Source: Candidatus Altimarinota bacterium (lineage in GTDB: Bacteria; Patescibacteriota; Gracilibacteria; UBA1369). Taken from it: a DNA stretch of 32,000 bases. How positions within the stretch are numbered: position 1 is the first letter of the stretch; each line of letters begins with the position of its first letter. Position numbers and translations under genes: made by a program. This document shows positions 2,470 to 32,000 of the stretch, piece by piece. The notes beneath the pieces are model-generated. The model was not told the origin of the DNA, made no database searches, and was given only the letters and a program-made list of their open reading frames with translations. The stretch covers positions 30,001-62,000 of the forward strand of contig JBAZYK010000011.1 in NCBI GenBank assembly GCA_041659405.1, given 5' to 3'.

Positions 2470-3165
2470 TCAATCAACACGCGCCCCTACAAAACTGTTA
2501 TACAAAGTATCTTCCGCAGGCGGAATGATGACCGGCTTGCGCTTAGCAACAGGCTTTAACGCAGAAAGAGGAGGCGCATCAACAACTTCAACGGGAGCAT
2601 GAACCGGTCTTTTATATACACCCGAGTTTGGCAAAGTTGGCGCCGCAGATGGAACGGAAGAGTTAACTTCCGCAGAAACACCAACTTCTGGCAGAACATC
2701 AACCTCATCAAAAGTCACCCAATTTCCACTATCTTTTGGAGCCCTAGAAGCAGCGACCTCACTCAAAACACGTTGGCATTGTCCACTAACTTCTCCAACA
2801 CTATCCACAACCGGATTACGACAAACCTCAACCAGTGCCCTTTCCAAGGATCCATATGAAAGGGTAAAAGCCGACTCTTTAGGATCATCAACATCAGTTT
2901 TTGGCCCACTGTCTGCTACATCCGCCAAATCACTGGAAAGTGGCCCCCAATTATCAAAGCCTCCCCTCGCATGTACTTCTGCCAATCCTGCAGCTACCTC
3001 ATGACCTTCCGGCCTTTGTCCATAAGCTTTCGCCTGCTCTCCTACATGTTCTCGTATTTTGGCCAATGTCCTCATTCTTGTCTTTTCATTAGCAGCCCTC
3101 ACAGCCTCCATAGCAGCAAGATCAACAGGCCATTCGCCTACATCACTTTCTTCCATATCCATCAT
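2470..3165 (-). CDS. hypothetical acidic protein (231 aa)
   Basis: ORF track. Same strand as the operon. No recognisable motif. Confidence 0.45.
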   Translation of the reverse strand: MMDMEESDVGEWPVDLAAMEAVRAANEKTRMRTLAKIREHVGEQAKAYGQRPEGHEVAAGLAEVHARGGFDNWGPLSSDLADVADSGPKTDVDDPKESAFTLSYGSLERALVEVCRNPVVDSVGEVSGQCQRVLSEVAASRAPKDSGNWVTFDEVDVLPEVGVSAEVNSSVPSAAPTLPNSGVYKRPVHAPVEVVDAPPLSALKPVAKRKPVIIPPAEDTLYNSFVGARVD

Positions 3166-3293
3166 TATATTGAAATTAGTTTCTAAAAAAAACCACGAAG
3201 TTCAACATACACACACAAATTCAAAAAGTCAACCACTCGCTCCAGGCACTTTTGAAAACAAAATCCCATTTCCTGTCTAAAAAATCACACACA

Positions 3294-4733
3294 CTACTTT
3301 AAAGCCTCATTCAAAGCCTCCGCCTTCATTAAAGTTTCCTCATATTCTTTTGTAGGATCAGAATCAGCCACAATTCCGCCGCCAACCTGCGCATAAATTT
3401 TCCCGTTTTTCTGCAAAATCGTCCGAATCAAAATATTTAGATCGGAGTCGCCCAAAAGGTTCACAAAACCTGCAGAACCGGTGTAAATCCCTCGCTTAAA
3501 ATCCTCCAAACCATCAATAATCTGCATGGTCCGCTTTTTAGGACAGCCGGTAATTGACCCACCCGGAAACACCGCCCGCAGCGCATCCCAAAAATCCTTT
3601 CCATAAGCCAATTTTCCTTCAACTTTCGCAATTGTATGAATCACATGTGAATATTTTTCGATTTTCTGAAAATCAGTAACCTTTACACTGCCCGCCTCGC
3701 AAACTTTTCCAAGATCATTTCGCTCCAAATCGGTAATCATAGCGAGCTCCGCTTTTTCCTTTTCCGAAGCCAAAAGTTCCGCCTCATGCGCCGCATCTTC
3801 TTCCGCATTTTTTCCACGAGCCACCGTGCCTTTAATCGGCCAGGTTTCAACTTTCGTTCCTCTTTTTCTAAGCAACAATTCCGGCGAAGAACTCATAATT
3901 TTGAACTCCGGGAACTCAAAATAACAGCTAAACGGTGAAGGATTAAGGCTTGAAAGTTTTTGATAGATTTTCCAGCCATCAACCGTACAATCCGCCGCAA
4001 ATCTCTGTGAAAAATTAACCTGATAAGTTTCTCCATCCTTCAAATATTGTTTTACCGCCGCGATTTTCTCTTGATATTGAGCAAAACTCACATTCGATTT
4101 TAAAGCTCCCATTTCGCCGACAGACCGTGGTCTAACCGGCTTCTGCAAATCCTCTTTCATGGTTTCAATTTTTTTACGCGCCTGCAAATCCGTCTCGGCC
4201 AAAGCCAAAAAATACAATTCATTTTCCTGATGATCAAACGCAAAAACCTTATCCACAAAAGCAAAAACAAAATCAGGCAGAACCACATCATCAAAAACTT
4301 TCTGTTCAACTTCCATCAAATTCGCGCCAAAATCATAACTGAAATAACCCGCCGCTCCACCAAAAAACGGCACCGGCGCCGCCCCATGATAATGAATGAA
4401 TTTAAAAATATTTTGCAAAACGTCCAAAGGCTCCCCTTCCACAATTTGACCGGTATTTTTCTTCTCAAAATCCAAAAAATCACGACGCTTTAAAAGCTGC
4501 GTCACCCCTTTGGTGGAACCTGCCCCACTTGCCTCACGCATACTGGAACAAACCATGTATGGATCATAACCAATATAAGAATAGCGCTCGGACAAGCCAC
4601 TTTTCTTCCCCGCAAAATCTCCGCCACTTTGCAGCAAAAACGCGTAATCTCCGCGAACATGATCAAAAAAACTGGCCGGATTTTCATCCTTGGCCAGTTT
4701 CCTTTTCTCGAAAAAAAGTTTTACGTATTTCAT
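3294..4733 (-). CDS. pabB: chorismate-binding enzyme, aminodeoxychorismate synthase component I (PabB/TrpE family)
   Basis: 479 aa. The C-terminal core ..SPELLLR..WPIKGT..RG..DLERNDLGKVC..VFPGGSITGCPKKRTMQII..RGIYTGSAGF.. is the chorismate-utilising enzyme signature. PabB is favoured by the pabC/folP neighbours. Confidence 0.8.
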   Translation of the reverse strand: MKYVKLFFEKRKLAKDENPASFFDHVRGDYAFLLQSGGDFAGKKSGLSERYSYIGYDPYMVCSSMREASGAGSTKGVTQLLKRRDFLDFEKKNTGQIVEGEPLDVLQNIFKFIHYHGAAPVPFFGGAAGYFSYDFGANLMEVEQKVFDDVVLPDFVFAFVDKVFAFDHQENELYFLALAETDLQARKKIETMKEDLQKPVRPRSVGEMGALKSNVSFAQYQEKIAAVKQYLKDGETYQVNFSQRFAADCTVDGWKIYQKLSSLNPSPFSCYFEFPEFKIMSSSPELLLRKRGTKVETWPIKGTVARGKNAEEDAAHEAELLASEKEKAELAMITDLERNDLGKVCEAGSVKVTDFQKIEKYSHVIHTIAKVEGKLAYGKDFWDALRAVFPGGSITGCPKKRTMQIIDGLEDFKRGIYTGSAGFVNLLGDSDLNILIRTILQKNGKIYAQVGGGIVADSDPTKEYEETLMKAEALNEALK

Positions 4734-7838: not shown

Positions 7839-10145
7839 ATGAAAAACCGTGCTTTTGGCAAAAGAAAACCTATAAATCGTCTTTCAATTCTGCTGATTGC
7901 AGCCTTTTTTATGACCGGCGTGATTGCCGTACGATTATTTTATTTGCAAGTGATTAAGGGCGATTATTACAGCAAAAAAGCCGATGCCGAACATTTTGGA
8001 GAAAGCACACTTTCCGCTCGCCGTGGTGAAATTTACATTAAGGATTATGCCTCAAACGACATGGTTAGGGTCGCCACCAACACCACTCTTGACCTTTTGT
8101 TTGCGGATCCCACCCAAATTGCCGACAAAAAACTGGTCGCGGACAGAATTTCACCAATGATTTTCAACCTGGATCAAGCCAAAAAAGATGACACAACCAG
8201 AATCAAAAACGAAACAATTCATGCCAAAACCGCCGAAGATCTGGCTAAAGTGGCCCCACTAAACGACCAGGAACTTTATCAAAAATTTTATACCGATCTT
8301 TTGGATAAAATCAGCCAGGAAAAGCGCTTACAAATCACCCTGCGTGACGATCTTCCCAAAGAAACCCTGGATCAAATTAAGGCCTTAAATTTAACCGGAA
8401 TAGATGCGGTTGAAGGTGCTTTAATTGCCTACCCTGCGCAAATAGTTGATCGTGATAAGGTTGCCCTGGCCCTGACTCCATATATGGAAATGCCACCAAC
8501 CGAACTTGCCAATATTTTAAAAGGAAGAAACCGCTACGTTATCCTTCAACGTAAAATCAAACCGGAAATTGCCGCCCAAATCAAAAAACTGATTGATGAA
8601 GATAAAACCAAAAACTTCACAGGGCTTGGCCTAAAAGAAGAATACTTCCGTTATTACCCGGAAGGTACTTTGGCATCCAACATTTTAGGTTTTGTTGTTG
8701 ATAGCGGTGCAAGCCAACTTGGCCAATATGGAATTGAAAGTAAATTCAACAGCCAACTTCAAGGAAAAAAGGGTATCTTTAAAACTCAAAAAGACGGACT
8801 CAATCGTCAAATCACTGTTGGCAACAGCGAAATCATTCCTGCTGTAGATGGCGACAACGTAGTCTTAACTATTGATCGTTCCATCCAAATGGCAGCAGAA
8901 AAATATTTGGCCCAGGCTGTCCGCGACTTTAATGCCGATAACGGACAAGTAATCGTAATGGATCCAAAAACCGGCAAAATTATGGCCATGGCCAGTTACC
9001 CGACTTTTAATCCCAACAGTTTTGGTGACATTTATCAAACCGAAGATGTCAGCCTAAGCCCCGAAAATATTAAAAACCTCGTTCCAATTGAAAACGTCCC
9101 AAATGCTTTTTGGTTCTACAGAAATTTTATAACCAAAGACCGTATCCAAATTTTCAAAGTGCAAAAAGATGATGGGACCGTTATTTATCAAAGATACGCA
9201 AATCTTGTCGGACCCGAGGCATATCAAAATAAACCTGTTTCCCAGGCTTATGAACCGGGATCCATTTTCAAAATTGTCACCATGGCAGCTGCAATTGATG
9301 ACGGCGACGTAAAGCCAACAACAGCCATTAACGATCCGGGCATTTTGTATCTTGATAAAAACAAAAATGGCGGAAAATTTAAAGGCCCCGATGGGCTTGG
9401 TTATGATGCCATCATCCATAATGTTTCTGAAAAATGCACGAATTCACATTCCACCATGACCTGGATCATCCAAAATTCATGTAACACCGGAATGACCTGG
9501 GTGGCACAAAAAATCGGCAGAAATCTGTTCTATAATTACATGCTAAAATTCGGATTCAACGAAAGAACCGATATTGAATTCGATAACGAAAGTCCGGGCA
9601 GAATCGCCAACTTTGATCAATGGACCGATTCCGAACTTGCCAACCATGCCTTTGGACAAGGTATTCTTGCCACTCCCCTGCAAATGATTTCGGCCTATGC
9701 CACCGTTGCCAACAAGGGCATTTATATGCAACCGCACATTGTGGAAAGTGTTCAGCAACAGGACGGGAAAATAATCACCTATGACCCAAAACCAATCCAG
9801 CGCGTAATTTCGGAACAGGCTGCGGAAACTATGAAGGCCATGCTGGTCAATAACGTTGAAAATGGCGACAGTTACGGCAGAATCCGCATGCCGGACCATT
9901 ACATCGGCGCTAAAACCGGTACAGCTCAAACTTATATGAACGGTGAAGCCTTAAAAGGCGCAGGTACAACCATTGCCACCATCATCGGCTTTGCTCCAAA
10001 AGATAATCCACGCTTTGTGATTTTAGCCAAATTGGATCACCCGCGCGCCAGCGAATGGGCCGACGCAACTTCCGCCGTCCTCTTCCAAAAAATGGCCGCT
10101 TACCTGTTTGACTACTTCAGCCTCCCACCGGATAAAAAAGGCTAA
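7839..10145 (+). CDS. class B penicillin-binding protein (PBP2/FtsI-type transpeptidase)
   Basis: 768 aa with an N-terminal TM anchor (LSILLIAAFFMTGVIAV). Transpeptidase motifs are SIFK (SxxK), SCN (SxN) and KTGT. Confidence 0.85.
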   Translation: MKNRAFGKRKPINRLSILLIAAFFMTGVIAVRLFYLQVIKGDYYSKKADAEHFGESTLSARRGEIYIKDYASNDMVRVATNTTLDLLFADPTQIADKKLVADRISPMIFNLDQAKKDDTTRIKNETIHAKTAEDLAKVAPLNDQELYQKFYTDLLDKISQEKRLQITLRDDLPKETLDQIKALNLTGIDAVEGALIAYPAQIVDRDKVALALTPYMEMPPTELANILKGRNRYVILQRKIKPEIAAQIKKLIDEDKTKNFTGLGLKEEYFRYYPEGTLASNILGFVVDSGASQLGQYGIESKFNSQLQGKKGIFKTQKDGLNRQITVGNSEIIPAVDGDNVVLTIDRSIQMAAEKYLAQAVRDFNADNGQVIVMDPKTGKIMAMASYPTFNPNSFGDIYQTEDVSLSPENIKNLVPIENVPNAFWFYRNFITKDRIQIFKVQKDDGTVIYQRYANLVGPEAYQNKPVSQAYEPGSIFKIVTMAAAIDDGDVKPTTAINDPGILYLDKNKNGGKFKGPDGLGYDAIIHNVSEKCTNSHSTMTWIIQNSCNTGMTWVAQKIGRNLFYNYMLKFGFNERTDIEFDNESPGRIANFDQWTDSELANHAFGQGILATPLQMISAYATVANKGIYMQPHIVESVQQQDGKIITYDPKPIQRVISEQAAETMKAMLVNNVENGDSYGRIRMPDHYIGAKTGTAQTYMNGEALKGAGTTIATIIGFAPKDNPRFVILAKLDHPRASEWADATSAVLFQKMAAYLFDYFSLPPDKKG

Positions 10146-10170: not shown

Positions 10171-11562
10171 TTGGTGTTAAACTTCCCACCAACTCATCCA
10201 AACGTAAAAAAACCTAAAAAACACCTTATGGCCATCAAAAATTTAGAAGAAAGCCAGCATAACATTCTGGAAATTATGAAGCGCGAACCGGAAGGCTTGA
10301 TAACAAAGCTAACTACTGTTGTCGATGAAGCCTTAAAGAAAAGATCAGCGGTTCTAAAGCTCGCCGCAAAAAAGCAAACCCCCTTTTATCTTTTGGATGA
10401 GAAAGCGCTGGATAAAAGCATTGATGAGTTCATGACCGGATTTTCGAAACACCTAAGTGGACGGCCTTACTATGCCATAAAATCCAATTATCATCCCCTC
10501 ATTTTAAAAAGAGTGGTCCAAAAAGGCATGGGGCTGGACGTTAGTAGCGGAAGAGAGCTGAAATTCGCAATTAAAGCAAAAGCCAAATACATCGTTTTTT
10601 CGGGACCGGGCAAAACCGATGAAGAGCTTCGTTTGGCCCTAAAATACCATAAAAGAGTGATCGTGCACGTGGACAGCTTTAATGAACTTAAACGTCTGGG
10701 AAACTTAAGCCAAAAATCCCACAAAAAAATTACAATTGGAGTCCGCTTTTTCACCAACTATCACTTGGGAAACAAATTCGGAATCCCCCTGGATGACCTG
10801 CGAGAATTCTGGACCGAAGCCAAAAAATACCCATATCTTGAACTAAGAGGACTACAATCTCATTTCAGCTGGAACAAAGACTCCGAAAAATATAGCAAAA
10901 TGCTCAAATTGCTCGCAGACCACTTAAAGAAATATTTTAAGCCCGAAGAGTTGGATGAAATTCATTTTATTGATCTGGGCGGCGGATTCTACCCAAAACA
11001 AATCGATGGATTTTACCCCTGGACAGGCCGCTATCCAAGCCATATGCATGCCGGCGCTCTTGCCAAGTTGGCAAACGCTGAATTCGGCGTAAAAACCGAA
11101 TTTATAGACCCATACTACATTGTGGATTCAAAAACCCCTGAAGAATATGCGGAATTGATCGGAACCGTGGTCAAAGAAAACTTAAGCTTCCTAAAAAACT
11201 GCATCTATTACGCAGAACCGGGACGAATGATCTCCTACAGTTCCATGCACATTGTTGTGAAGCTTATCGACATCAAAAAATCCTCCGTTGGCATCACGGA
11301 CGGAGGAATCAACGCTATCGGTTGGGAATTTGGCGAACATTTCTACATGCCCATCATTAATTTAACTCATCCTTCAAAAGAAGAAATCCCCTTCACATTA
11401 TACGGATCACTCTGCACACCAAGAGACGTCTGGGGCTACTATTGTTTTGCCAGCGAAATGCAAAGCGGCGATGTCCTGATCATCCCAAATCAAGGGGCCT
11501 ATCGCTACACTCTCGCCCAGGAATTTATCAAAGCCATTCCGCCAGTCTACGTTCTAAAATAA
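10171..11562 (+). CDS. fold-type III PLP-dependent decarboxylase (Orn/DAP/Arg decarboxylase family, LysA-like)
   Basis: YYAIKSNY (PLP lysine), GMGLDVSSGRE, HVDS, DLGGGF, EPGR and CTPRD motifs. The track start at 10171 is a TTG; an ATG at 10228 (MAIKNLEE) is an alternative start. Confidence 0.8.
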   Translation: MVLNFPPTHPNVKKPKKHLMAIKNLEESQHNILEIMKREPEGLITKLTTVVDEALKKRSAVLKLAAKKQTPFYLLDEKALDKSIDEFMTGFSKHLSGRPYYAIKSNYHPLILKRVVQKGMGLDVSSGRELKFAIKAKAKYIVFSGPGKTDEELRLALKYHKRVIVHVDSFNELKRLGNLSQKSHKKITIGVRFFTNYHLGNKFGIPLDDLREFWTEAKKYPYLELRGLQSHFSWNKDSEKYSKMLKLLADHLKKYFKPEELDEIHFIDLGGGFYPKQIDGFYPWTGRYPSHMHAGALAKLANAEFGVKTEFIDPYYIVDSKTPEEYAELIGTVVKENLSFLKNCIYYAEPGRMISYSSMHIVVKLIDIKKSSVGITDGGINAIGWEFGEHFYMPIINLTHPSKEEIPFTLYGSLCTPRDVWGYYCFASEMQSGDVLIIPNQGAYRYTLAQEFIKAIPPVYVLK

Positions 11563-13100: not shown

Positions 13101-13175
13101 AGGCCCTTCGTATAACGGCTAGTACAAAGGTTTCCAAAACCTTTAGCGCGGGTTCGACTCCTGCAGGGCCTGCCA
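13101..13175 (+). tRNA. tRNA-Trp (anticodon CCA), CCA-3' encoded
   Basis: Manual cloverleaf. Acceptor aggccct/agggcct, anticodon stem aaggt/acctt with loop ttCCAaa, T arm gcggg-ttcgact-cctgc, discriminator g followed by cca. Confidence 0.9.
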
Positions 13176-25294: not shown

Positions 25295-25649
25295 GCATGA
25301 AAAAATCCGAATAGTGCGAAAACTTTTCGTAGCGAATACCCTGCCCTTTTGGAAAATACTAAAAAACTTTTCAGGGAAAAGGTTTTTAGATTTAAAAAAA
25401 CTCCATCATGCCGTTGAACCTCAAGGATACTAAACCCCCAGTACCCAGTATGGGTGCCCGCAAACCAACCGCACACGGTTGGATATATTGAGCCCCCTTA
25501 AACAATGCGAAGAGAGAGTATATGGGGTCCTGACGTGCAAAATAGAGTAACCAAAATGTAACAAAAATCAGCCAAAATATCAAGGACTTCCCGGCTTAAA
25601 AAATAGTCAACTAGCCATTGTATCTGGTCAGTCGACAACGCCCCTATTG

Positions 25650-26695: not shown

Positions 26696-26785
26696 GGAGA
26701 GATCGCATAGTGGCCGAGTGCGCATGCTTGGAAAGCATGTAACGTCGCAAGGCGTTCGAGGGTTCGAATCCCTCTCTCTCCGCCA
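26696..26785 (+). tRNA. tRNA-Ser (anticodon GGA), long variable arm, CCA encoded
   Basis: Acceptor ggagaga/tctctcc, anticodon stem catgc/gcatg with loop ttGGAaa, long variable arm taacgtcgcaaggcgttc, T arm gaggg-ttcgaat-ccctc. Confidence 0.9.
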
Positions 26786-26964: not shown

Positions 26965-27510
26965 ATGAAAAAAATTTTATTACCACTGCTACTCATTGTT
27001 TTCATTCAAACGGGTTGTGGTAACGGCGGAATTAAAGAAGAAGCCCACACCCAACGACCGGGTGAGTTTAAAAATGGGCAACTGTATGCCACTTTTAAGA
27101 TAGATAATTTCCAGATGAACTATCCCAATTGGCCGAATTTTGATACAAGCAAAGCGGCCGACGCGGACAAATACAAGCTTGCAGTAGCCAATGAAGGCTG
27201 CAGTTTTATTATTAAAGTCTCACCGGTTCCCTCAAACATTTCCTTTAAAGATTATGCCGAGAATGCGCTTCAAGAAGGGACAAAACTATATCCAACAAAG
27301 ATTTTGATCAAAGACGTTAAGGACACTTTTGCCCATTTTGAAGGCGAAATATCAATGAGCAACGTTATCATGAAAAGTGTTACCTACGCCTATTTCACCG
27401 GCAAAAAAGAATCTGTCAGTGTCGGTTTGGTTGCCCGAAAAGACCAATTTGACCAAGGCTGCACGCCAATAATGGATGAAGCGATCAGCAGCGTTAAAGT
27501 GGACTTCTAA
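26965..27510 (+). CDS. putative lipoprotein (181 aa)
   Basis: Signal peptide with lipobox LLLIVFIQTGCGNG. No other motif. Confidence 0.6.
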   Translation: MKKILLPLLLIVFIQTGCGNGGIKEEAHTQRPGEFKNGQLYATFKIDNFQMNYPNWPNFDTSKAADADKYKLAVANEGCSFIIKVSPVPSNISFKDYAENALQEGTKLYPTKILIKDVKDTFAHFEGEISMSNVIMKSVTYAYFTGKKESVSVGLVARKDQFDQGCTPIMDEAISSVKVDF

Positions 27511-28366
27511 TTCTGGCCAAAGCCACACTTGTAAGTCTGGTATAAATTTGAGTTGTGCGGATACTGCTGTGCCCCAAAAGCTCCTGCAAATAACGAATAT
27601 CCACACCATTTTCCAGCAAATGAGTCGCAAAACTGTGCCGCAACGCATGAAATCCGGCAATTTTATTGATCCCCGCTTTTTGCATAGCCTGCAAAAAAAC
27701 TTTCTGAGCCGTTCGCGAATGCAACTTCCCTCCCCTCTGGCTTTCAAAAACAAAATCGCCCAAACTCTTACCAAAAATAAACGCCTTCAATTCATCTTTT
27801 ATTTTACCCGGCATCACCGAAAGACGATCCTTGCCACCTTTTCCTTTTCGCACACAAACAAGCACACGCTCAAAATCCAAATCAGCCACCTTCAAATTAA
27901 CAACCTCACTCACCCGCAAACCAGATCCATAAGCCAAAGAAAGCATTAACCGATGTTTCTGATTTTTAAGAGCTGCCAGTAGTGCCAAAATCTCTTCCTT
28001 CAAGAAAACAACAGGCAAACGCCGAGATCTTTTCGCAAACTTTAAAGGAATTTGTGTTTGATTCTTCAGCACCTCCCGATAAAAAAATTTAATCGAATTC
28101 AAATAAAGATTCACCGTTTGCGGAGCAAAGCCCTTATCGTGCTTCCACAAAAGAAAAGTCCGAATTTTCTCGACATCCAAAATTTCAATATTAGAGCCCG
28201 CTTCGCAAGCAGTAGCAATAGTCATATCCTGCGGCCCCAAAGCTCTGGAATCATTTTTCAAAAATGCCAAAAACACACTCAAACATGACCGATAAGCCTT
28301 AGCCGTCCGCTGACTATGCCCACGAAGCTTCACTTCCTCCACCAAACGATCCAAATAATATTTCAT
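27494..28366 (-). CDS. tyrosine recombinase, integron-integrase-like but lacking the IntI-specific insertion
   Basis: 290 aa. The catalytic set lies in ..GLRVSE.. (R), GKGGKDR (K), HALRHSFATHLL (H-x-x-R), LLGHSS (H) and IYTRL (Y). It shares RRLPVV, KVADLDF, GKGxKDR and the C-terminal (I/V)RSPL with IntI1 as I recall that sequence. The spacing from KDR to LRH is 60 aa here, against roughly 100 aa in IntI1. Confidence 0.85.
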   Translation of the reverse strand: MKYYLDRLVEEVKLRGHSQRTAKAYRSCLSVFLAFLKNDSRALGPQDMTIATACEAGSNIEILDVEKIRTFLLWKHDKGFAPQTVNLYLNSIKFFYREVLKNQTQIPLKFAKRSRRLPVVFLKEEILALLAALKNQKHRLMLSLAYGSGLRVSEVVNLKVADLDFERVLVCVRKGKGGKDRLSVMPGKIKDELKAFIFGKSLGDFVFESQRGGKLHSRTAQKVFLQAMQKAGINKIAGFHALRHSFATHLLENGVDIRYLQELLGHSSIRTTQIYTRLTSVALARIRSPL

Positions 28367-28508
28367 AACTTTTTTATTATAAAACTAAAGACCCCCAAAG
28401 AAGACTCAATGGAGGTCGGTAGCAAGATGCTACGGAAGAAGAATTGCCAATAACATTGTAGTATTTTTCATTGTTCATGGTCAATTTAAAATTTTTAGTG
28501 CTAGCCCG

Positions 28509-28577
28509 TGGTGGAGATAAGGGGAATTGAACCCCTGGAAGATGAATGGCAATTCCTCCTCCGCGCCTGCTATCCCC
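28509..28577 (-). ncRNA. 69-nt tRNA-Ala-like minihelix (acceptor plus T arm, non-tRNA core), CCA encoded
   Basis: Minus strand: GGGGAUA-GCAGGCGC-GGAGGA-AUUGCCAUUCA-UCUUCC-AGGGG-UUCAAUU-CCCCU-UAUCUCC-A-CCA. The acceptor has a G3-U70 pair and the T arm is canonical, but there are no D or anticodon arms. It could be a functional tRNA-like RNA, a tmRNA-TLD-like relic or an att remnant. Confidence 0.4.
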
Positions 28578-28717
28578 GCCCAAGGCCAGCTGAGAACAAA
28601 ATACACAAAAAACATTAAAAAATTCTAAACCCAAAATGAAAAAAACTTAAAAAACATCACTTCCCAAAACCCACCATTCTCTGCTACTATCGCGCCATAA
28701 AGCACCGCAAGACACTA

Positions 28718-28913
28718 GTTGTGCAACAAGTTGCTCACGCGTTTATTAATCAATCTTCCTAAAACTCAAAAAAACCTGGAAAAGTAAGAAGCTCCCGGTC
28801 TGTTCGCAACTCATCGCACAACAGCACACATGCGGTTCGCTGGCTTTCGGCTAATCCAAGGCACAAACTGCTCTTCAAAAAGGTTTAAGAAACCTATAAA
28901 TCTCAAGAAAACT
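28718..28913 (+). repeat. 196-bp perfect direct repeat, copy 1 (start of cassette 1)
   Basis: Identical base for base to 31805-32000 (offset 3087 bp). Identity begins exactly at the GTT of the junction and is cut only by the window end. Confidence 0.95.
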
Positions 28914-29002
28914 CTCACGCTCTCCCAACTTATTTGCAGCAGTCGCCCTTCGGGCATATTATACCGCTGCCAATAAGTTCGCATGGCGTGCGAACGTTAG
29001 CT
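28816..29002 (+). repeat. attC-like site 1 (long variant)
   Basis: Inverse core GCACAAC (28816-28822) is the exact complement of cassette-1 start GTTGTGC (28718-28724). Then A, then L-stem GCACACATGC (28824-33) pairing with GCATGGCGTGC (28981-91). GGTTCGC lies at 28834-40, GAAC at 28992-95 and G|TT at 28996. Confidence 0.65.
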
Positions 29003-29044
29003 GCCATACTCCCTGCGTGAAATTTTAATCTTAATAAAAAAACT

Positions 29045-29350
29045 ATGAAATTATCCACAATTTACAACGCAGCTCTGGAAAAAGCCGACGCAGATGCGGC
29101 AGAAGTCATGATGCGCATGAGTCCAAAGTTAGGTTTAAGTAATCTTGACGACCTTCAAGGTAAAAAAAATCGACAAGAAGCCTTAGAAAGAGTTAATTTT
29201 GTTTATAATTTATCTGGTCCCATTGGAAAAATTGGATTTAGAGTCATAGAAGAAATAAGGGCAATAGATTGGGGTGATCGAATGGAAGAATTTCATGGAA
29301 TAAACCAACAGGAATGGTATAAAGAACTTGGCAATTTCCAAAAAAATTAA
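29045..29350 (+). CDS. hypothetical protein (101 aa), cassette 2
   Basis: ORF track. It starts 48 nt after the cassette boundary and ends 20 nt before attC-like site 2. No recognisable motif. Confidence 0.55.
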   Translation: MKLSTIYNAALEKADADAAEVMMRMSPKLGLSNLDDLQGKKNRQEALERVNFVYNLSGPIGKIGFRVIEEIRAIDWGDRMEEFHGINQQEWYKELGNFQKN

Positions 29351-29370
29351 AATTTCCCTCCGGTCGTACA

Positions 29371-29487
29371 GCAGCTAACAGCGCCCAACCGGTTCGCCCT
29401 GCGGGGCTCTCCCAAATTTTGTGGCGGTGAGTCGCTCCGCTCCCAATTATACCGCCACAAAACTTCGGTTAGGCGCGGACGTTATAT
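29371..29487 (+). repeat. attC-like site 2
   Basis: Inverse core GCAGCTAAC (29371-79) is the exact complement of cassette-2 start GTTAGCTGC (28996-29004). Then A, then L-stem GCGCCCAACC (29381-90) pairing with GGTTAGGCGC (29467-76). GGTTCGC lies at 29391-97, GGAC at 29477-80 and G|TT at 29481. Confidence 0.65.
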
Positions 29488-29627
29488 GAAATATGCTTTT
29501 CTTTTTACGGCTAACGCCTTACACTTTTCTATAATGAACAAATTTTATTTTTAATTTTTTAGAGGGGGTATATGGTATTTTTTCCGCTACGCTCCGAAAA
29601 TGATTTATTAAATATAATTAAAAACAT

Positions 29628-30593
29628 ATGAAAAACGAAGTAGAAATTTTTGATGAAGAAAATACAATCGTCATTGACGATGAATATACAACTAATACTT
29701 TTGAATTTTTTCCTGACGAGAAAAAATTCAAGATCGATGTGAGTATCAAAGATGATTTTCATCATAATTATTCAACAATTGAATATAAAATTTCAGATGA
29801 TCCTATTAATTTAAAAATGCGTACGATAGAGCTTTTTCATGAATTTATAGGCGGGAAAAGTGATTCAATAAAAGACGGGGTTGTCTTGGAATCGGAACTC
29901 AGAAAAGATAAATTTAATAACCAAGAAAGAATAGACGATTTGAAAAAAGAAGTAGAGTGGTCAAATGTTGTCATATTCGGCAACCCCGAAGTCAATCTTT
30001 ATATTCTATCTAAACACCCAGAGATAATCTCAAAAGATGATTATAGGAAATTTTTGCGTCAGTCTATAGAGAGAATTAGAGATGGCGTTGCTAAAGTAAA
30101 AGAAATAGTAAAAACTGATTTTCATGGATTGGAAATCCATACGGGCGACCATGGAATGAGTATTTGGTATCCAGACAATGAATCGGAAAAGAAAGAAAGT
30201 GAGGCATATTGGGATTTACCGAAAGATAAGCGTGATAATTCTGCCTATGGTAAGAAGCTAAAATATGTCGAGGATTTTAATAAATCGCTTTTTGATGAAA
30301 AATCTTCAAGTTATGTTGGCATTTCTGAAATTGAGTTTAGAAGTAGTGATGAAATAGTTGAATATGTCCAAAAACTACTTGATAAAAAAGACGAGCCCGC
30401 TAAAAAAGAAGTTAAACCTAAAATTTCAAAAACAAAAGGATTTATTATTTCTCTGTTTATAACACTTATTCTTTCATGGGTTGTAAGCTGGTTTGTGGAT
30501 ATACACCCATTTTTGATTTTTATAATCGTGCAAGTTATCGCATTTGCACAAAGCATAATTGGTGGTTGGCTAGAAAAAATATTAGAAAAATAA
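29628..30593 (+). CDS. hypothetical protein with two C-terminal TM helices (321 aa), cassette 3 gene 1
   Basis: ORF track. Acidic, K/E/D-rich soluble part, then GFIISLFITLILSWVVSWFV and PFLIFIIVQVIAFAQSIIGGWL. AT-rich codon usage unlike the flanking chromosome. Confidence 0.65.
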   Translation: MKNEVEIFDEENTIVIDDEYTTNTFEFFPDEKKFKIDVSIKDDFHHNYSTIEYKISDDPINLKMRTIELFHEFIGGKSDSIKDGVVLESELRKDKFNNQERIDDLKKEVEWSNVVIFGNPEVNLYILSKHPEIISKDDYRKFLRQSIERIRDGVAKVKEIVKTDFHGLEIHTGDHGMSIWYPDNESEKKESEAYWDLPKDKRDNSAYGKKLKYVEDFNKSLFDEKSSSYVGISEIEFRSSDEIVEYVQKLLDKKDEPAKKEVKPKISKTKGFIISLFITLILSWVVSWFVDIHPFLIFIIVQVIAFAQSIIGGWLEKILEK

Positions 30594-30606
30594 AATAGGT
30601 AATCGC

Positions 30607-31593
30607 ATGAATCAAAACGATTTGAAAATCATAGAAATTGGTCATCAAATCAGGGATCTCTTTAATAATTCCACAATAAAAAAGACACAGGTTTATTCAA
30701 GAAAACAAAGTGGCGATTGGAATCAATTTTGTGCAGCATTAGATACACTTGAAGATACCTGCTTAGCGATAGAGAATTTTCAAAAAGATTCGAATAATTT
30801 ATTTATAAAAAATCCATATTTAGCAACTTACGGACTTTTGCAGGCTCTTTTTATCCAACAAGACGCTGTAAATTTTTTAAAAATATCCTTATTTGGTATA
30901 AGCAATAAAATTGATTGGAAGGACAAAAAATATTCAGAACTTTTTAAAATTAGGCAAGTCAGAAACGAAACCATAGGACACCCCGTAAAAAAGGAGAACA
31001 AAGGCAATAAATCAAAGTATGAAAATGACGAAATCACCTCTTGCACCATTGATCGCTCATCTTTGAGCAAAGACGGTTTTAGATACATGTTATGGATGCA
31101 CTCAAAAACAGAAAGCAAAACGATAAAATTTACGGACATCATCAGTCAACAAGATAAATATCTCGGAAATGAATTAGAAATTGTTATGAAAGAAATTCAA
31201 AAAGAAGAGAATCAACATAAAACAAAATTTAAAAATGAAAAATTGGCCGATTTGTTAAATAAACCTTCTCTGTACCAGATAAATCATATTTATGGCGTTC
31301 AATGGAATGACCATTTAGCATGGCCTAGTTTTAATCATTATCACGAATTATACAAAAAAATAAGAAAGAGTTTAGAAGATCGCTATGGTAAATTTGGCGA
31401 AACTTTGAGGATTCCTGGAACGGAAGAAGTAATCAAAAAATTAGATTATGTATTTGGCAAAATTGAAACATTTCAAAAAACTGGTAATTTTGAAAATTAC
31501 GAACTTGAGGTTTATATTGACGCTCTTGACGCTGGAATTAACGAGTTAAAAACTCATTTAGTAGAAGTTGATCAAGAATTTGAAATACAATAA
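30607..31593 (+). CDS. hypothetical protein with an RNxxxxH (HEPN-like) motif (328 aa), cassette 3 gene 2
   Basis: ORF track. AGGTAA sits 8 nt upstream of the ATG, and the gene begins 13 nt after gene 1. FKIRQVRNETIGHPVK fits the HEPN Rx4-6H pattern with the polar residue after R. This is a motif-level call only. Confidence 0.6.
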   Translation: MNQNDLKIIEIGHQIRDLFNNSTIKKTQVYSRKQSGDWNQFCAALDTLEDTCLAIENFQKDSNNLFIKNPYLATYGLLQALFIQQDAVNFLKISLFGISNKIDWKDKKYSELFKIRQVRNETIGHPVKKENKGNKSKYENDEITSCTIDRSSLSKDGFRYMLWMHSKTESKTIKFTDIISQQDKYLGNELEIVMKEIQKEENQHKTKFKNEKLADLLNKPSLYQINHIYGVQWNDHLAWPSFNHYHELYKKIRKSLEDRYGKFGETLRIPGTEEVIKKLDYVFGKIETFQKTGNFENYELEVYIDALDAGINELKTHLVEVDQEFEIQ

Positions 31594-31596
31594 GGA

Positions 31597-31648
31597 GTCT
31601 TGGCTTCGGGGCATTCACCCCCCAGCCCCTCTGCCCCTACGCCAAGAC
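31597..31648 (+). other. GC-rich hairpin immediately after the cassette-3 ORFs
   Basis: gtcttggc (31597-31604) pairs with gccaagac (31641-31648), with an inner gggg-cattca-cccc. It is followed by an A-rich rather than a T-rich tract, so it is not a canonical terminator. Confidence 0.35.
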
Positions 31649-31711
31649 AAAAATAAAATTTGTTAATTACAAAAAAGTGCCGACTATCGTCGGAAAAAAG
31701 AAAAGCATACA

Positions 31712-31811
31712 TCATATAGCAGCGTATATCTGGTTCGCGCTTGGCTAACGCCAAATGCTCACCCATATTGCTCCCTACGGTCGCAACATCAGATATGCGC
31801 GAACGTTGTGC
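31712..31811 (+). repeat. attC-like site 3
   Basis: Inverse core TCATATAGC (31712-20) complements cassette-3 start GTTATATGA (29481-89) with one G-T pair. The extended match is GCATACATCATATAGC against the complement of GTTATATGAAATATGC, 13 of 16. Then A, then L-stem GCGTATATCT (31722-31) pairing with AGATATGCGC (31791-800). GGTTCGC lies at 31732-38, GAAC at 31801-04 and G|TT at 31805. Confidence 0.65.
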
Positions 31812-32000
31812 AACAAGTTGCTCACGCGTTTATTAATCAATCTTCCTAAAACTCAAAAAAACCTGGAAAAGTAAGAAGCTCCCGGTCTGTTCGCAACTCA
31901 TCGCACAACAGCACACATGCGGTTCGCTGGCTTTCGGCTAATCCAAGGCACAAACTGCTCTTCAAAAAGGTTTAAGAAACCTATAAATCTCAAGAAAACT
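31805..32000 (+). repeat. 196-bp perfect direct repeat, copy 2 (start of cassette 4, a duplicate of cassette 1)
   Basis: Identical to 28718-28913. Truncated by the window end. Confidence 0.95.

Follow-up and report, generated by a model that had tools for sequence, protein, structure and literature searches.

Positions 28,718 to 32,000 of a 32,000-nucleotide (nt) stretch from a Candidatus Altimarinota bacterium (GenBank assembly GCA_041659405.1, contig JBAZYK010000011.1; this whole stretch is referred to as the window) hold three repeats, W1 to W3, that are real recombination sites of a cassette array. We consider it likely, with a probability of roughly 0.8, that this array belongs to an integron-like gene-capture platform in an ultrasmall bacterium of the Candidate Phyla Radiation (CPR)/Patescibacteria type. 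A reading of the DNA letters alone (the sequence-only reading) had proposed the repeats to be attC-like sites of circularising cassettes, and our analysis supports this proposal, each testable part of which held on about 100 sites. The observations comprise the anatomy of the locus, the oriented and exclusive association of the sites with a tyrosine recombinase gene, the covariation of their stems, the match of each site to the start of its own cassette, the polymorphism and sharing of cassettes, and a recombinase that lacks the I2 insertion of integron integrases.

The cassette array of the window

The array begins with G 28718, adjoins the divergently transcribed recombinase gene, and contains three cassettes closed by W1, W2, and W3, respectively (Table 1). 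The sequence-only reading had ascribed one architecture to the three sites: an inverse core, a single A, an L-stem strand, the element GGTTCGC, a variable region, the L-stem partner, G(A/G)AC, and GTT. We found all of these elements in place, and far beyond chance expectation; the pattern RCAGC-N8-GGTTCGC has four matches in the window, all of them on the + strand, compared to 0.00 expected from 100 shuffles. The fourth match, at 31908, lies in the second copy of cassette 1. Each variable region possesses the described CTC(T/A)CCCA motif and a hairpin. The L-stem strands are indeed complementary, but not perfectly so, with one mismatch or bulge in each stem (a bulge in W1). The inverse core ends with AAC in W1 and W2 and with AGC in W3.

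Each inverse core is indeed complementary to the beginning of its own cassette, as the sequence-only reading had stated, although the proposed pair TCATATAGC/GTTATATGA contains one mismatch; the inverse core of W1 (TCGCACAAC) agrees with the reverse complement of the start of cassette 1 (GTTGTGCAA) at 8 of 9 positions. In cassettes 2 and 3 this complementarity runs to 24-37 nt: a 37-nt inverted repeat links the start of cassette 2 to the region ending in the W2 inverse core, and inverted repeats of 24 and 31 nt link the start of cassette 3 to the region 5' of the W3 inverse core. When the sites were folded as single-stranded DNA in the form that they would possess in a circular cassette, each was predicted to form one long hairpin (z scores of -3 to -7; -5.6 for the top and -7.1 for the bottom strand of W2), and this form folded better than the form present in the array. 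An alternative pairing of GGTTCGC with GCGAAC that was predicted for W3 was rejected, as it is not kept in site L001a or in sites ending with TGAAAC.

All open reading frames (ORFs) of the window cassettes are co-oriented with the array, and no match was found in Pfam or PADLOC for the three ORFs of cassettes 2 and 3. The GC content of the cassettes (33%) is lower than that of the backbone (42%). Cassette 1 recurs after cassette 3, and the boundary of the repeated segment falls exactly on the G of GTT (G 28718 and G 31805). A contig from ENA (locus L081) shares 11.5 kb with the window at 100% identity, comprising backbone, attI-like junction, and cassette 1, after which it carries a different cassette of 409 bp and then cassette 1 again; the junctions read GAAC^GTT (the caret marks the boundary), and the inverse core of the 409-bp cassette (TCCAACAAC) matches its own start (GTTGTTGGA). 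Cassette 1 is thus present at least twice per array in two assemblies (the window, and positions 1-133 and 541-821 of L081).

Table 1. Positions of the platform, its sites and cassettes, and neighbouring RNA genes in the window (numbered from its first letter)
Feature	Position	Strand	Basis or detail
Tyrosine recombinase (integrase), 290 aa as longest ORF	27494-28366	-	Pfam, NCBIfam, catalytic residues
attI-like junction	28660-28720	+	Platform ends ...GACACTA; first cassette from G 28718 (GTTGTGCAAC)
Cassette 1, no co-oriented ORF of at least 50 aa, mostly the long site W1	28718-28996	+	GTT junctions, repeated copy
Site W1, 197 nt, insertion of about 85 nt after GGTTCGC	28814-29010	+	Covariance model 47.6 bits, E 8e-9
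W1 inverse core GCACAAC	28816-28822	+	
W1 single A	28823	+	
W1 L strand	28824-28833	+	
W1 GGTTCGC	28834-28840	+	
W1 L-strand partner	28981-28991	+	
W1 GAAC	28992-28995	+	
W1 GTT	28996-28998	+	
Cassette 2, one ORF at 29045-29350 (101 aa, no family match)	28996-29481	+	37-nt inverted repeat
Site W2	29371-29495	+	Covariance model 95.3 bits
W2 inverse core	29371-29379	+	
W2 single A	29380	+	
W2 L strand	29381-29390	+	
W2 GGTTCGC	29391-29397	+	
W2 L-strand partner	29467-29476	+	
W2 GGAC	29477-29480	+	
W2 GTT	29481-29483	+	
Cassette 3, ORFs at 29628-30593 (321 aa) and 30607-31593 (328 aa)	29481-31805	+	
Accessory hairpin, conserved loop ATTCACCCC..CCCCTCT, 60 nt upstream of W3	31596-31649	+	
Site W3	31712-31819	+	Covariance model 82.8 bits
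W3 inverse core	31712-31720	+	
W3 single A	31721	+	
W3 L strand	31722-31731	+	
W3 GGTTCGC	31732-31738	+	
W3 L-strand partner	31791-31800	+	
W3 GAAC	31801-31804	+	
W3 GTT	31805-31807	+	
Second copy of cassette 1, cut by the window end	31805-32000	+	100% identical to 28718-28913
tRNA-Trp(CCA)	13101-13175	+	
6S RNA	25396-25551	-	50 bits, above gathering score
tRNA-Ser(GGA)	26696-26785	+	

Related loci and the structure of their sites

For the comparison, we used 80 genome assemblies that encode homologues of the window recombinase with 41-59% identity. Most of the assembly titles denote CPR/Patescibacteria, more than 20 read 'uncultured Gammaproteobacteria' or 'Pseudomonadales', and two Margulisbacteria; these labels are given as deposited. 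The CPR lineages possessing the system include Peregrinibacteria, Saccharibacteria, Kerfeldbacteria, Falkowbacteria, Berkelbacteria, Microgenomates, and WWE3. The exact window motif GGTTCG...CGRACGTT proved too strict as a search pattern, recovering one other site in the 80 loci. A loose pattern yielded about 24 sites, from which an alignment (A1, made with MAFFT) and a covariance model (R1) were built. When both strands of 987 kb were searched with this model, 109 matches were obtained at E values of up to 1, three of them being the window sites. The other 106 are all located upstream of the recombinase gene and on the opposite strand, with none downstream, which supports the reading of the repeats as recombination sites. 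Where at least 2 kb of sequence is available upstream (31 loci), a site is present in 29, and the longest arrays comprise 7-9 sites. In about 35 of the 80 loci, no more than 700 bp separate the recombinase gene from the upstream end of the contig; we attribute these contig ends near an 'XerD' gene to the breaking of assemblies by the arrays. More than 40 independent assemblies, complete chromosomes among them, showed the same architecture. The sites have no match in Rfam (none in Rfam 15 even at E values up to 5), and a 32-mer of cassette 1 had no match in the metagenome collection of the Joint Genome Institute.

In the alignment of 109 sites, the consensus reads TC-NNNN-AAC / A / SSGNRTATSYGG / (Y)TC ... 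hairpin ... YTCNCCCAWATT - hairpin - AACWTC / RSATAYNCSS / AAAC / GTT-RKNY-GAAAT. The AAC of the inverse core and the GTT of the core are conserved to 97-100%, while the RYYY/RRRY part of the consensus is followed loosely. The conserved R' is longer than the GTTR to which the sequence-only reading had limited it, since GTT-NNNN-GAAAT pairs with TC-NNNN-AAC; of the GGTTCGC element of the window sites, only GGTTC is kept in relatives. The L arm (GTATATG) closely resembles the R arm (GTTATATG) in sequence, the L stem thus being a degenerate R-arm copy, and forms a continuous helix of 12-13 bp with one extra G in about 9 of the 109 sites. The spacer consists of an A opposite xRAC, 1 nt versus 4 nt, in keeping with the asymmetric geometry and unpaired spacer that had been proposed. 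A folded site with two inverted arms around an asymmetric spacer is the core geometry of a tyrosine recombinase site. The conserved extrahelical L-box bases and the near-symmetric 5/6-nt spacer of integron attC sites are absent. Most sites possess a terminal module composed of GGTTC, a hairpin, CTCNCCCAWATT, and a further hairpin. Among the 90 best matches, about 10% are of a short type, 62-73 nt in length, in which R'' and the A are followed by nothing more than a 13-bp stem with its loop, AAAC, and R', and the GGTTC...CTCNCCCA (GGTTC...CCCA) module is therefore dispensable.

Standard pairs occupy 92.1% of the cells of the 19-pair stems in these 109 sites, compared to 65.3% in shuffled and 34-47% in slid controls. 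Doubly changed cells number 498 (146 expected), and compensatory changes are present in all 19 pairs. The 109-site alignment is fitted to the model; for the unfitted alignment A1, RNAalifold likewise predicted 19 pairs, 15 of which show compensatory changes. The covariation claimed for the window stems is thus borne out on about 100 independent sites and likewise in the unfitted alignment. Mismatches of the G.T and A.C types are equally frequent in the stems (41:41) and hence neutral with regard to the strand, and the predicted stability is greater for the bottom strand in 92 of 104 sites.

To assess the own-cassette relationship, we took 63 pairs of consecutive sites and compared the variable part of the inverse core, four bases, with the cassette starts. 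These bases pair perfectly with the start of their own cassette in 40 of 63 cases, compared to 5 of 60 for the next cassette; shuffling gave a mean of 4.8 own-cassette matches and a maximum of 12. The relatives therefore uphold the claim that an inverse core matches its own and not the next cassette, as in integrons, where an ..AAC inverse core and a GTT.. core with a G^TT crossover go along with this complementarity. In one third of the cassettes the complementarity extends over 14-40 nt, and an inverse core can find its partner at a cassette start up to about 8 kb upstream.

Twenty-seven other loci carry, 60-170 nt upstream of the start of the integrase gene, the reverse complement of the inverse core of their first site. 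The attI consensus of these loci reads TTCGnATAA...(~30 nt)...TTCGnATAAaAACnA^GTTAtnTGAAAT, with the boundary at TTCGnATAAaAACnA^GTT; the window carries the variant ACACTA^GTT, likewise found in L049 and L075, and L076 has TCACTA^GTT. The attI-like site is composed of two TTCGnATAA direct repeats and a dif-like core, TTCGnATAA-AAACnAG-TTATnTGAAAT, with which the 3' half of each cassette site is collinear. The dif site of E. coli reads GGTGCGCATAA-TGTATA-TTATGTTAAAT, and the arms of the attI core (CGCATAA ... TTATnTGAAAT) are similar to its XerC and XerD arms. The site marks the insertion point of the first cassette next to the divergent integrase gene, as attI does in integrons.

Sixty-four cassettes, with a median length of 822 bp, were delimited, and the longest ORF is co-oriented with the array in 58 of 62; these are unidirectional arrays of short, mostly one-ORF cassettes that each end in a site. 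Their cargo comprises defence and toxin functions (TOTE/NERD helicase, type I/III restriction subunits, AbiEii, Fic) as well as transporters of the major facilitator superfamily and for Na/Ca, lactate/malate dehydrogenase, a queuosine salvage protein, and many unknowns. The GC content of the arrays is usually below that of their flanks. A two-gene AbiE cassette shared by L043 and L057 is 90% identical over 2085 nt, starting at cassette position 1; the integrase genes of these loci are 71% identical over 283 nt only, and the remaining backbones share three short matches of up to 108 nt.

Additional sequence elements accompany the cassettes. The accessory hairpin listed in Table 1 was counted 21 times in 18 loci, each time on the array strand; the other 20 copies are found in L001, L011, L018, L023, L028, L046, L049, L053, L055, L057, L060, L068, L069, L072, L075, L076, and L079. 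It is usually located 60-150 nt upstream of an attC-like site and has no Rfam match. The sequence of its long stem varies between copies while complementarity is kept by covariation, and its loop reads ATTCACCCC-N(2-14)-CCCCTCT. Cassette 1 possesses a promoter-like sequence (TTTGCA-18-TATTAT, + strand, 28933-28962) directed into the next cassette. Elsewhere, many sites have TATAAT-like boxes in their terminal loops, either on the top strand with AAGG after the box or on the bottom strand in the form TGGTATAAT. Cassette 3 of the window and the first cassette of L001 carry different genes and have in common a leader (GTTNNNNGAAATAnnnTTTTCTTTT), a trailer (CCGACTATCGTCGG hairpin and AAAAGAAAAG..ATACAT), and boxes of the AGGGG.ATATGG type (window 29482-29552 with 31649-31718; L001 9719-9690 with 4300-4340). 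This sharing suggests a common cassette 'chassis'.

The recombinase, a proposed mechanism, and competing explanations

The recombinase encoded next to the array matches Pfam Phage_integrase (5.5e-41) and Phage_int_SAM_4, the latter being the type of N-terminal domain usual in IntI-like proteins. The start of its database twin, P0001, lies 11 codons downstream of the start of the longest ORF. Its score with NCBIfam XerA_Arch (210.6 bits) is just under the cut-off of 220, and that with the integron integrase family TIGR02249 (197 bits, in two stretches) is below the cut-off of 265. The best match among solved structures is XerA of P. abyssi (PDB 4a8e), to which it aligns contiguously. The alignment to IntI4 of V. 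cholerae (VchIntIA, 2a3v) is split, with residues 197-213 of the query (17 residues) opposite residues 181-240 of IntI4 (60 residues), that is, the region of the IntI-specific I2 insertion. No I2 insertion was present at the equivalent place in the 11 homologues compared. The window recombinase hence lacks the I2 domain around patch III by which integron integrases are recognised, and its sequence identifies it as an XerA/IntI-like protein without this insertion. The catalytic residues R151, K176, H240, R243, H266, and Y275 are invariant among the homologues, which end with SPL. The family has more than 5800 members with a typical length of about 270 aa and is named XerD or 'tyrosine recombinase/integron integrase' in the sources. 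Compared to most homologues of this length, the window integrase carries an insertion of about 20 residues (approximately 38-62) in its N-terminal domain; some other homologues have larger insertions at the same place.

The recombinase gene is transcribed away from the attI-like site, on the other side of which follow cassettes of about 0.8 kb, each closed by an imperfect palindrome of 60-200 nt. In the mechanism that we propose, strand exchange at ..AAC^GTT (or G^TT) would excise a cassette as a circle, and such circles would be inserted at attI or at another site. Since cassettes would excise and insert as circles, an inverse core would match the start of its own cassette. The adjacent recombinase probably catalyses this reaction, and the folding predictions point to a folded single strand as its substrate. 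Tyrosine recombinases cleave 5' of the central region; with the cassette boundary on the R' side, the bottom strand would be cut. This would make the bottom strand the reactive one, at which its greater predicted stability also hints, and it may be resolved without a second-strand exchange, as in integrons and in CTX-phi integration. One may speculate that it is the asymmetric spacer that blocks the second exchange here, in place of I2 and extrahelical bases.

Several points weigh against this interpretation. The recombinase lacks I2, and the sites lack the extrahelical bases, by which single-strand exchange is enforced in integrons; a second exchange would be lethal. The wobble test shows no strand preference, and the greater stability of the bottom strand could be an effect of composition, the top strand being C-rich. 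The 3' half of the sites and attI are dif-like duplexes, and some conventional double-strand recombination of the Xer type may take place. The own-cassette rule is broken in 23 of 63 consecutive pairs, which missed or decayed sites may explain. In L001, the second site flanks housekeeping-looking genes such as murB: the stretch between its two sites (2601-4226 in array orientation) carries such genes on the opposite strand, murB-like by eye, and the inverse core of the second site is unlike the start of this stretch, as in a decayed array end or with a missed site. The recurrence of cassette 1 at both contig and window ends could in part reflect a path through the assembly graph. All comparison loci are metagenome or single-cell assemblies, and cassette recombination and circles are proposed here on the basis of assembled sequence.

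The most serious rival, given the dif-like attI and the Xer-like enzyme, is an Xer/dif system with integrative mobile elements exploiting Xer (IMEX), in which the recombinase would be a dimer resolvase, attI the chromosomal dif, and the 'cassettes' piled-up elements of the CTX-phi hairpin type. An Xer-type recombinase without I2 whose top score is XerA, and which sources call XerD, is indeed combined here with a 28-30-bp site of inverted arms around a 6-8-bp centre, and the arms of attI resemble those of E. coli dif. Single-Xer systems such as XerS are generally known to have the gene adjoining the site, and the folded geometry of two inverted half-sites is that of CTX-phi attP(+) (cf. PMC7790495). 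This explanation predicts a target at the GC-skew switch of the chromosome. In about 11 loci with sequence on both sides (among them L001, L037, L044, L048, L052, L060, L067, L069, and L077), GC skew had the same sign on either side and was of similar size in most. Since no switch occurs across these loci, they do not lie at a replication terminus, and attI as the terminus dif was rejected. Furthermore, the units have the form of single-ORF cassettes, about 0.8 kb in length, and contain neither replication nor phage genes, up to 9 sites follow each other consecutively, and attI possesses two accessory direct repeats as does attI1. We therefore regard the Xer/IMEX explanation as improbable.

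It is also doubtful, and somewhat more so, that the sites recombine conventionally as double strands, as direct dif-like duplexes (L'-spacer-R') in the manner of pdif or Xer-cise, with the hairpin being incidental. The 3' half of a site (TC-GCATATAC-nG-AAAC-G-TTATATGAAAT) is collinear with attI (TTC-GCATAA-AAACGA-G-TTATATGAAAT), and the recombinase lacks the domain by which integron integrases use folded sites. Such duplex recombination, however, gives no reason for a 5' half (R'', L) that covaries with L' and with the R' of its own cassette at non-conserved positions, and it leaves the better folding of the circular form unexplained.

That the repeats are transcribed RNA structures (stabilisers of 3' untranslated regions, terminators, or non-coding RNAs) without a role in recombination is very unlikely. 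They are strongly structured and lie 3' of ORFs on the sense strand, as transcribed elements would. RNA helices favour G.U pairs, and the equal counts of G.U-type and A.C-type mismatches reported above argue against selection at the RNA level. In addition, the pairing of core and cassette start spans whole cassettes, cassette boundaries and polymorphisms fall at GAAC^GTT, no T-run follows the stems, and neither a curated covariance-model match nor G.U-tolerant covariation was found. The scenario named as refuting by the sequence-only reading, transcribed RNA repeats, is consequently not supported. An assembly artefact or simple tandem duplication can practically be dismissed; cassette 1 does recur where the window stops, and the ENA contig, from a k=141 assembly, likewise ends 133 nt into this repeat, but the repeat boundary is exactly the G of GTT and the architecture recurs in the independent assemblies and complete chromosomes described above.

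Surroundings of the platform and relation to known systems

Between the integrase gene and the attI-like junction, the window contains a tRNA-like domain reminiscent of transfer-messenger RNA (tmRNA; 28509-28577, - strand, with flanks at 28377-28640). Its acceptor stem comprises 7 bp and includes G3.U70, and ACCA and a T arm are present as well, but only about 28 nt take the place of the approximately 310 nt of tmRNA. Rfam tmRNA scored 33 bits, which is under the gathering score, ARAGORN was silent, and an outer stem surrounds the domain. Downstream of it follow a promoter-like site (TTGACC-18-TACAAT) and a 17-bp segment that is complementary to its arm and covaries in L001; a terminator-like hairpin is located between the tRNA-like piece and the integrase, just before the ATG. 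In L001, the full element lies downstream of the integrase and a copy without the tRNA-like domain upstream (10863-11059, + strand; 9780-9990), and it was not found in the other 78 loci. A genomic island in tmRNA was rejected as an explanation for the platform; the tRNA-like piece is confined to the window lineage and L001, on the opposite side of the integrase in the latter, and therefore does not belong to the platform in general. The element could be a leader or regulator of the integrase or a relic of tmRNA-targeted integration. The 6S RNA, tRNA-Ser(GGA), and tRNA-Trp(CCA) genes of the window are ordinary housekeeping RNA genes near the platform. The GC skew of the backbone (window 1-28000) is strongly negative on the + strand (-0.1 to -0.4) and slightly positive in the cassette region.

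The platform resembles integrons, in particular sedentary chromosomal ones, in its divergent integrase next to an attI with accessory direct repeats, in its one-way array of cassettes of about 0.5-1 kb with mostly one co-oriented ORF, and in an accessory and defence cargo of lower GC content. At the cassette end, an imperfect palindrome runs from an ..AAC inverse core to a GTT.. core, with the crossover at or next to G^TT, so that the inverse core matches its own cassette start, and the site combines R and L arms with a spacer that stays unpaired and a terminal structure that varies. Unlike in integrons, the CPR integrase has no I2 and scores under the integron-integrase cut-off, and its sites lack conserved extrahelical L-arm bases and have a spacer of 1 nt versus 4 nt. 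Their R box is at least 9 bp long with conserved outer bases (TC..GA), and most include GGTTC...CTCNCCCAWATT as a conserved module in their interior; the core of attI is dif-like and the host range is CPR/Patescibacteria.

The integration of CTX-phi by XerCD at dif, as an IMEX, shares with our platform an Xer-type enzyme without I2 and a hairpin of inverted dif-like half-sites with a bulged centre that is recombined with a duplex dif-like site (cf. the discussion in PMC7790495). Here, however, small cassettes without phage functions form long arrays, the recombinase gene lies within the platform, the locus shows no GC-skew switch, and the own-cassette rule implies reversible excision as circles. 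Archaeal XerA and other single-Xer proteins, together with the 'Cand' subgroup of Xer-related recombinases that was defined on such proteins in candidate phyla (Smyshlyaev et al., 2021, PMC8138268), provide the best sequence matches and have the same size and domain set. They are read as dimer resolvases acting on one duplex dif, and no array or folded site is attached to them in the searchable literature. The pdif modules of Acinetobacter plasmids are generally known as small gene modules between Xer-type sites as well; unlike our sites, pdif are plain duplexes in alternating orientation that are used by the host XerC/XerD, and they lack a hairpin, covariation, a dedicated platform, and a unidirectional array. 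In the searchable literature on integrons, attC, and tyrosine recombinases in CPR or Patescibacteria we found no description of the system; subscription journals were outside this scope, and the finding is thus no proof of novelty.

In the integron field, the acquisition of the I2 helix is regarded as the step that enabled a Xer-like recombinase to use folded attC sites, and a 'lack of intermediates' is acknowledged (Escudero et al., 2020, PMC7790495). Since detection tools define integrons by the I2 domain, a system without I2 is invisible to them. We lean slightly towards the view that CPR bacteria carry a widespread and as yet unrecognised integron-like lineage with a dif-like attI and without I2, either as a living intermediate between Xer/dif and integrons or as an independent parallel. 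An XerA/IntI-like recombinase without I2 is linked to arrays of folded-type sites in dozens of CPR lineages; if this interpretation is true, cassette capture via folded DNA sites would be possible without the I2 innovation. Should the platforms be active, integron-type gene capture would reach a major genome-reduced radiation, stockpiling defence and toxin genes. They would then also provide a natural system in which to study how single-strand exchange is controlled without I2 and extrahelical bases, and the origin of integrons from Xer/dif would become experimentally addressable.

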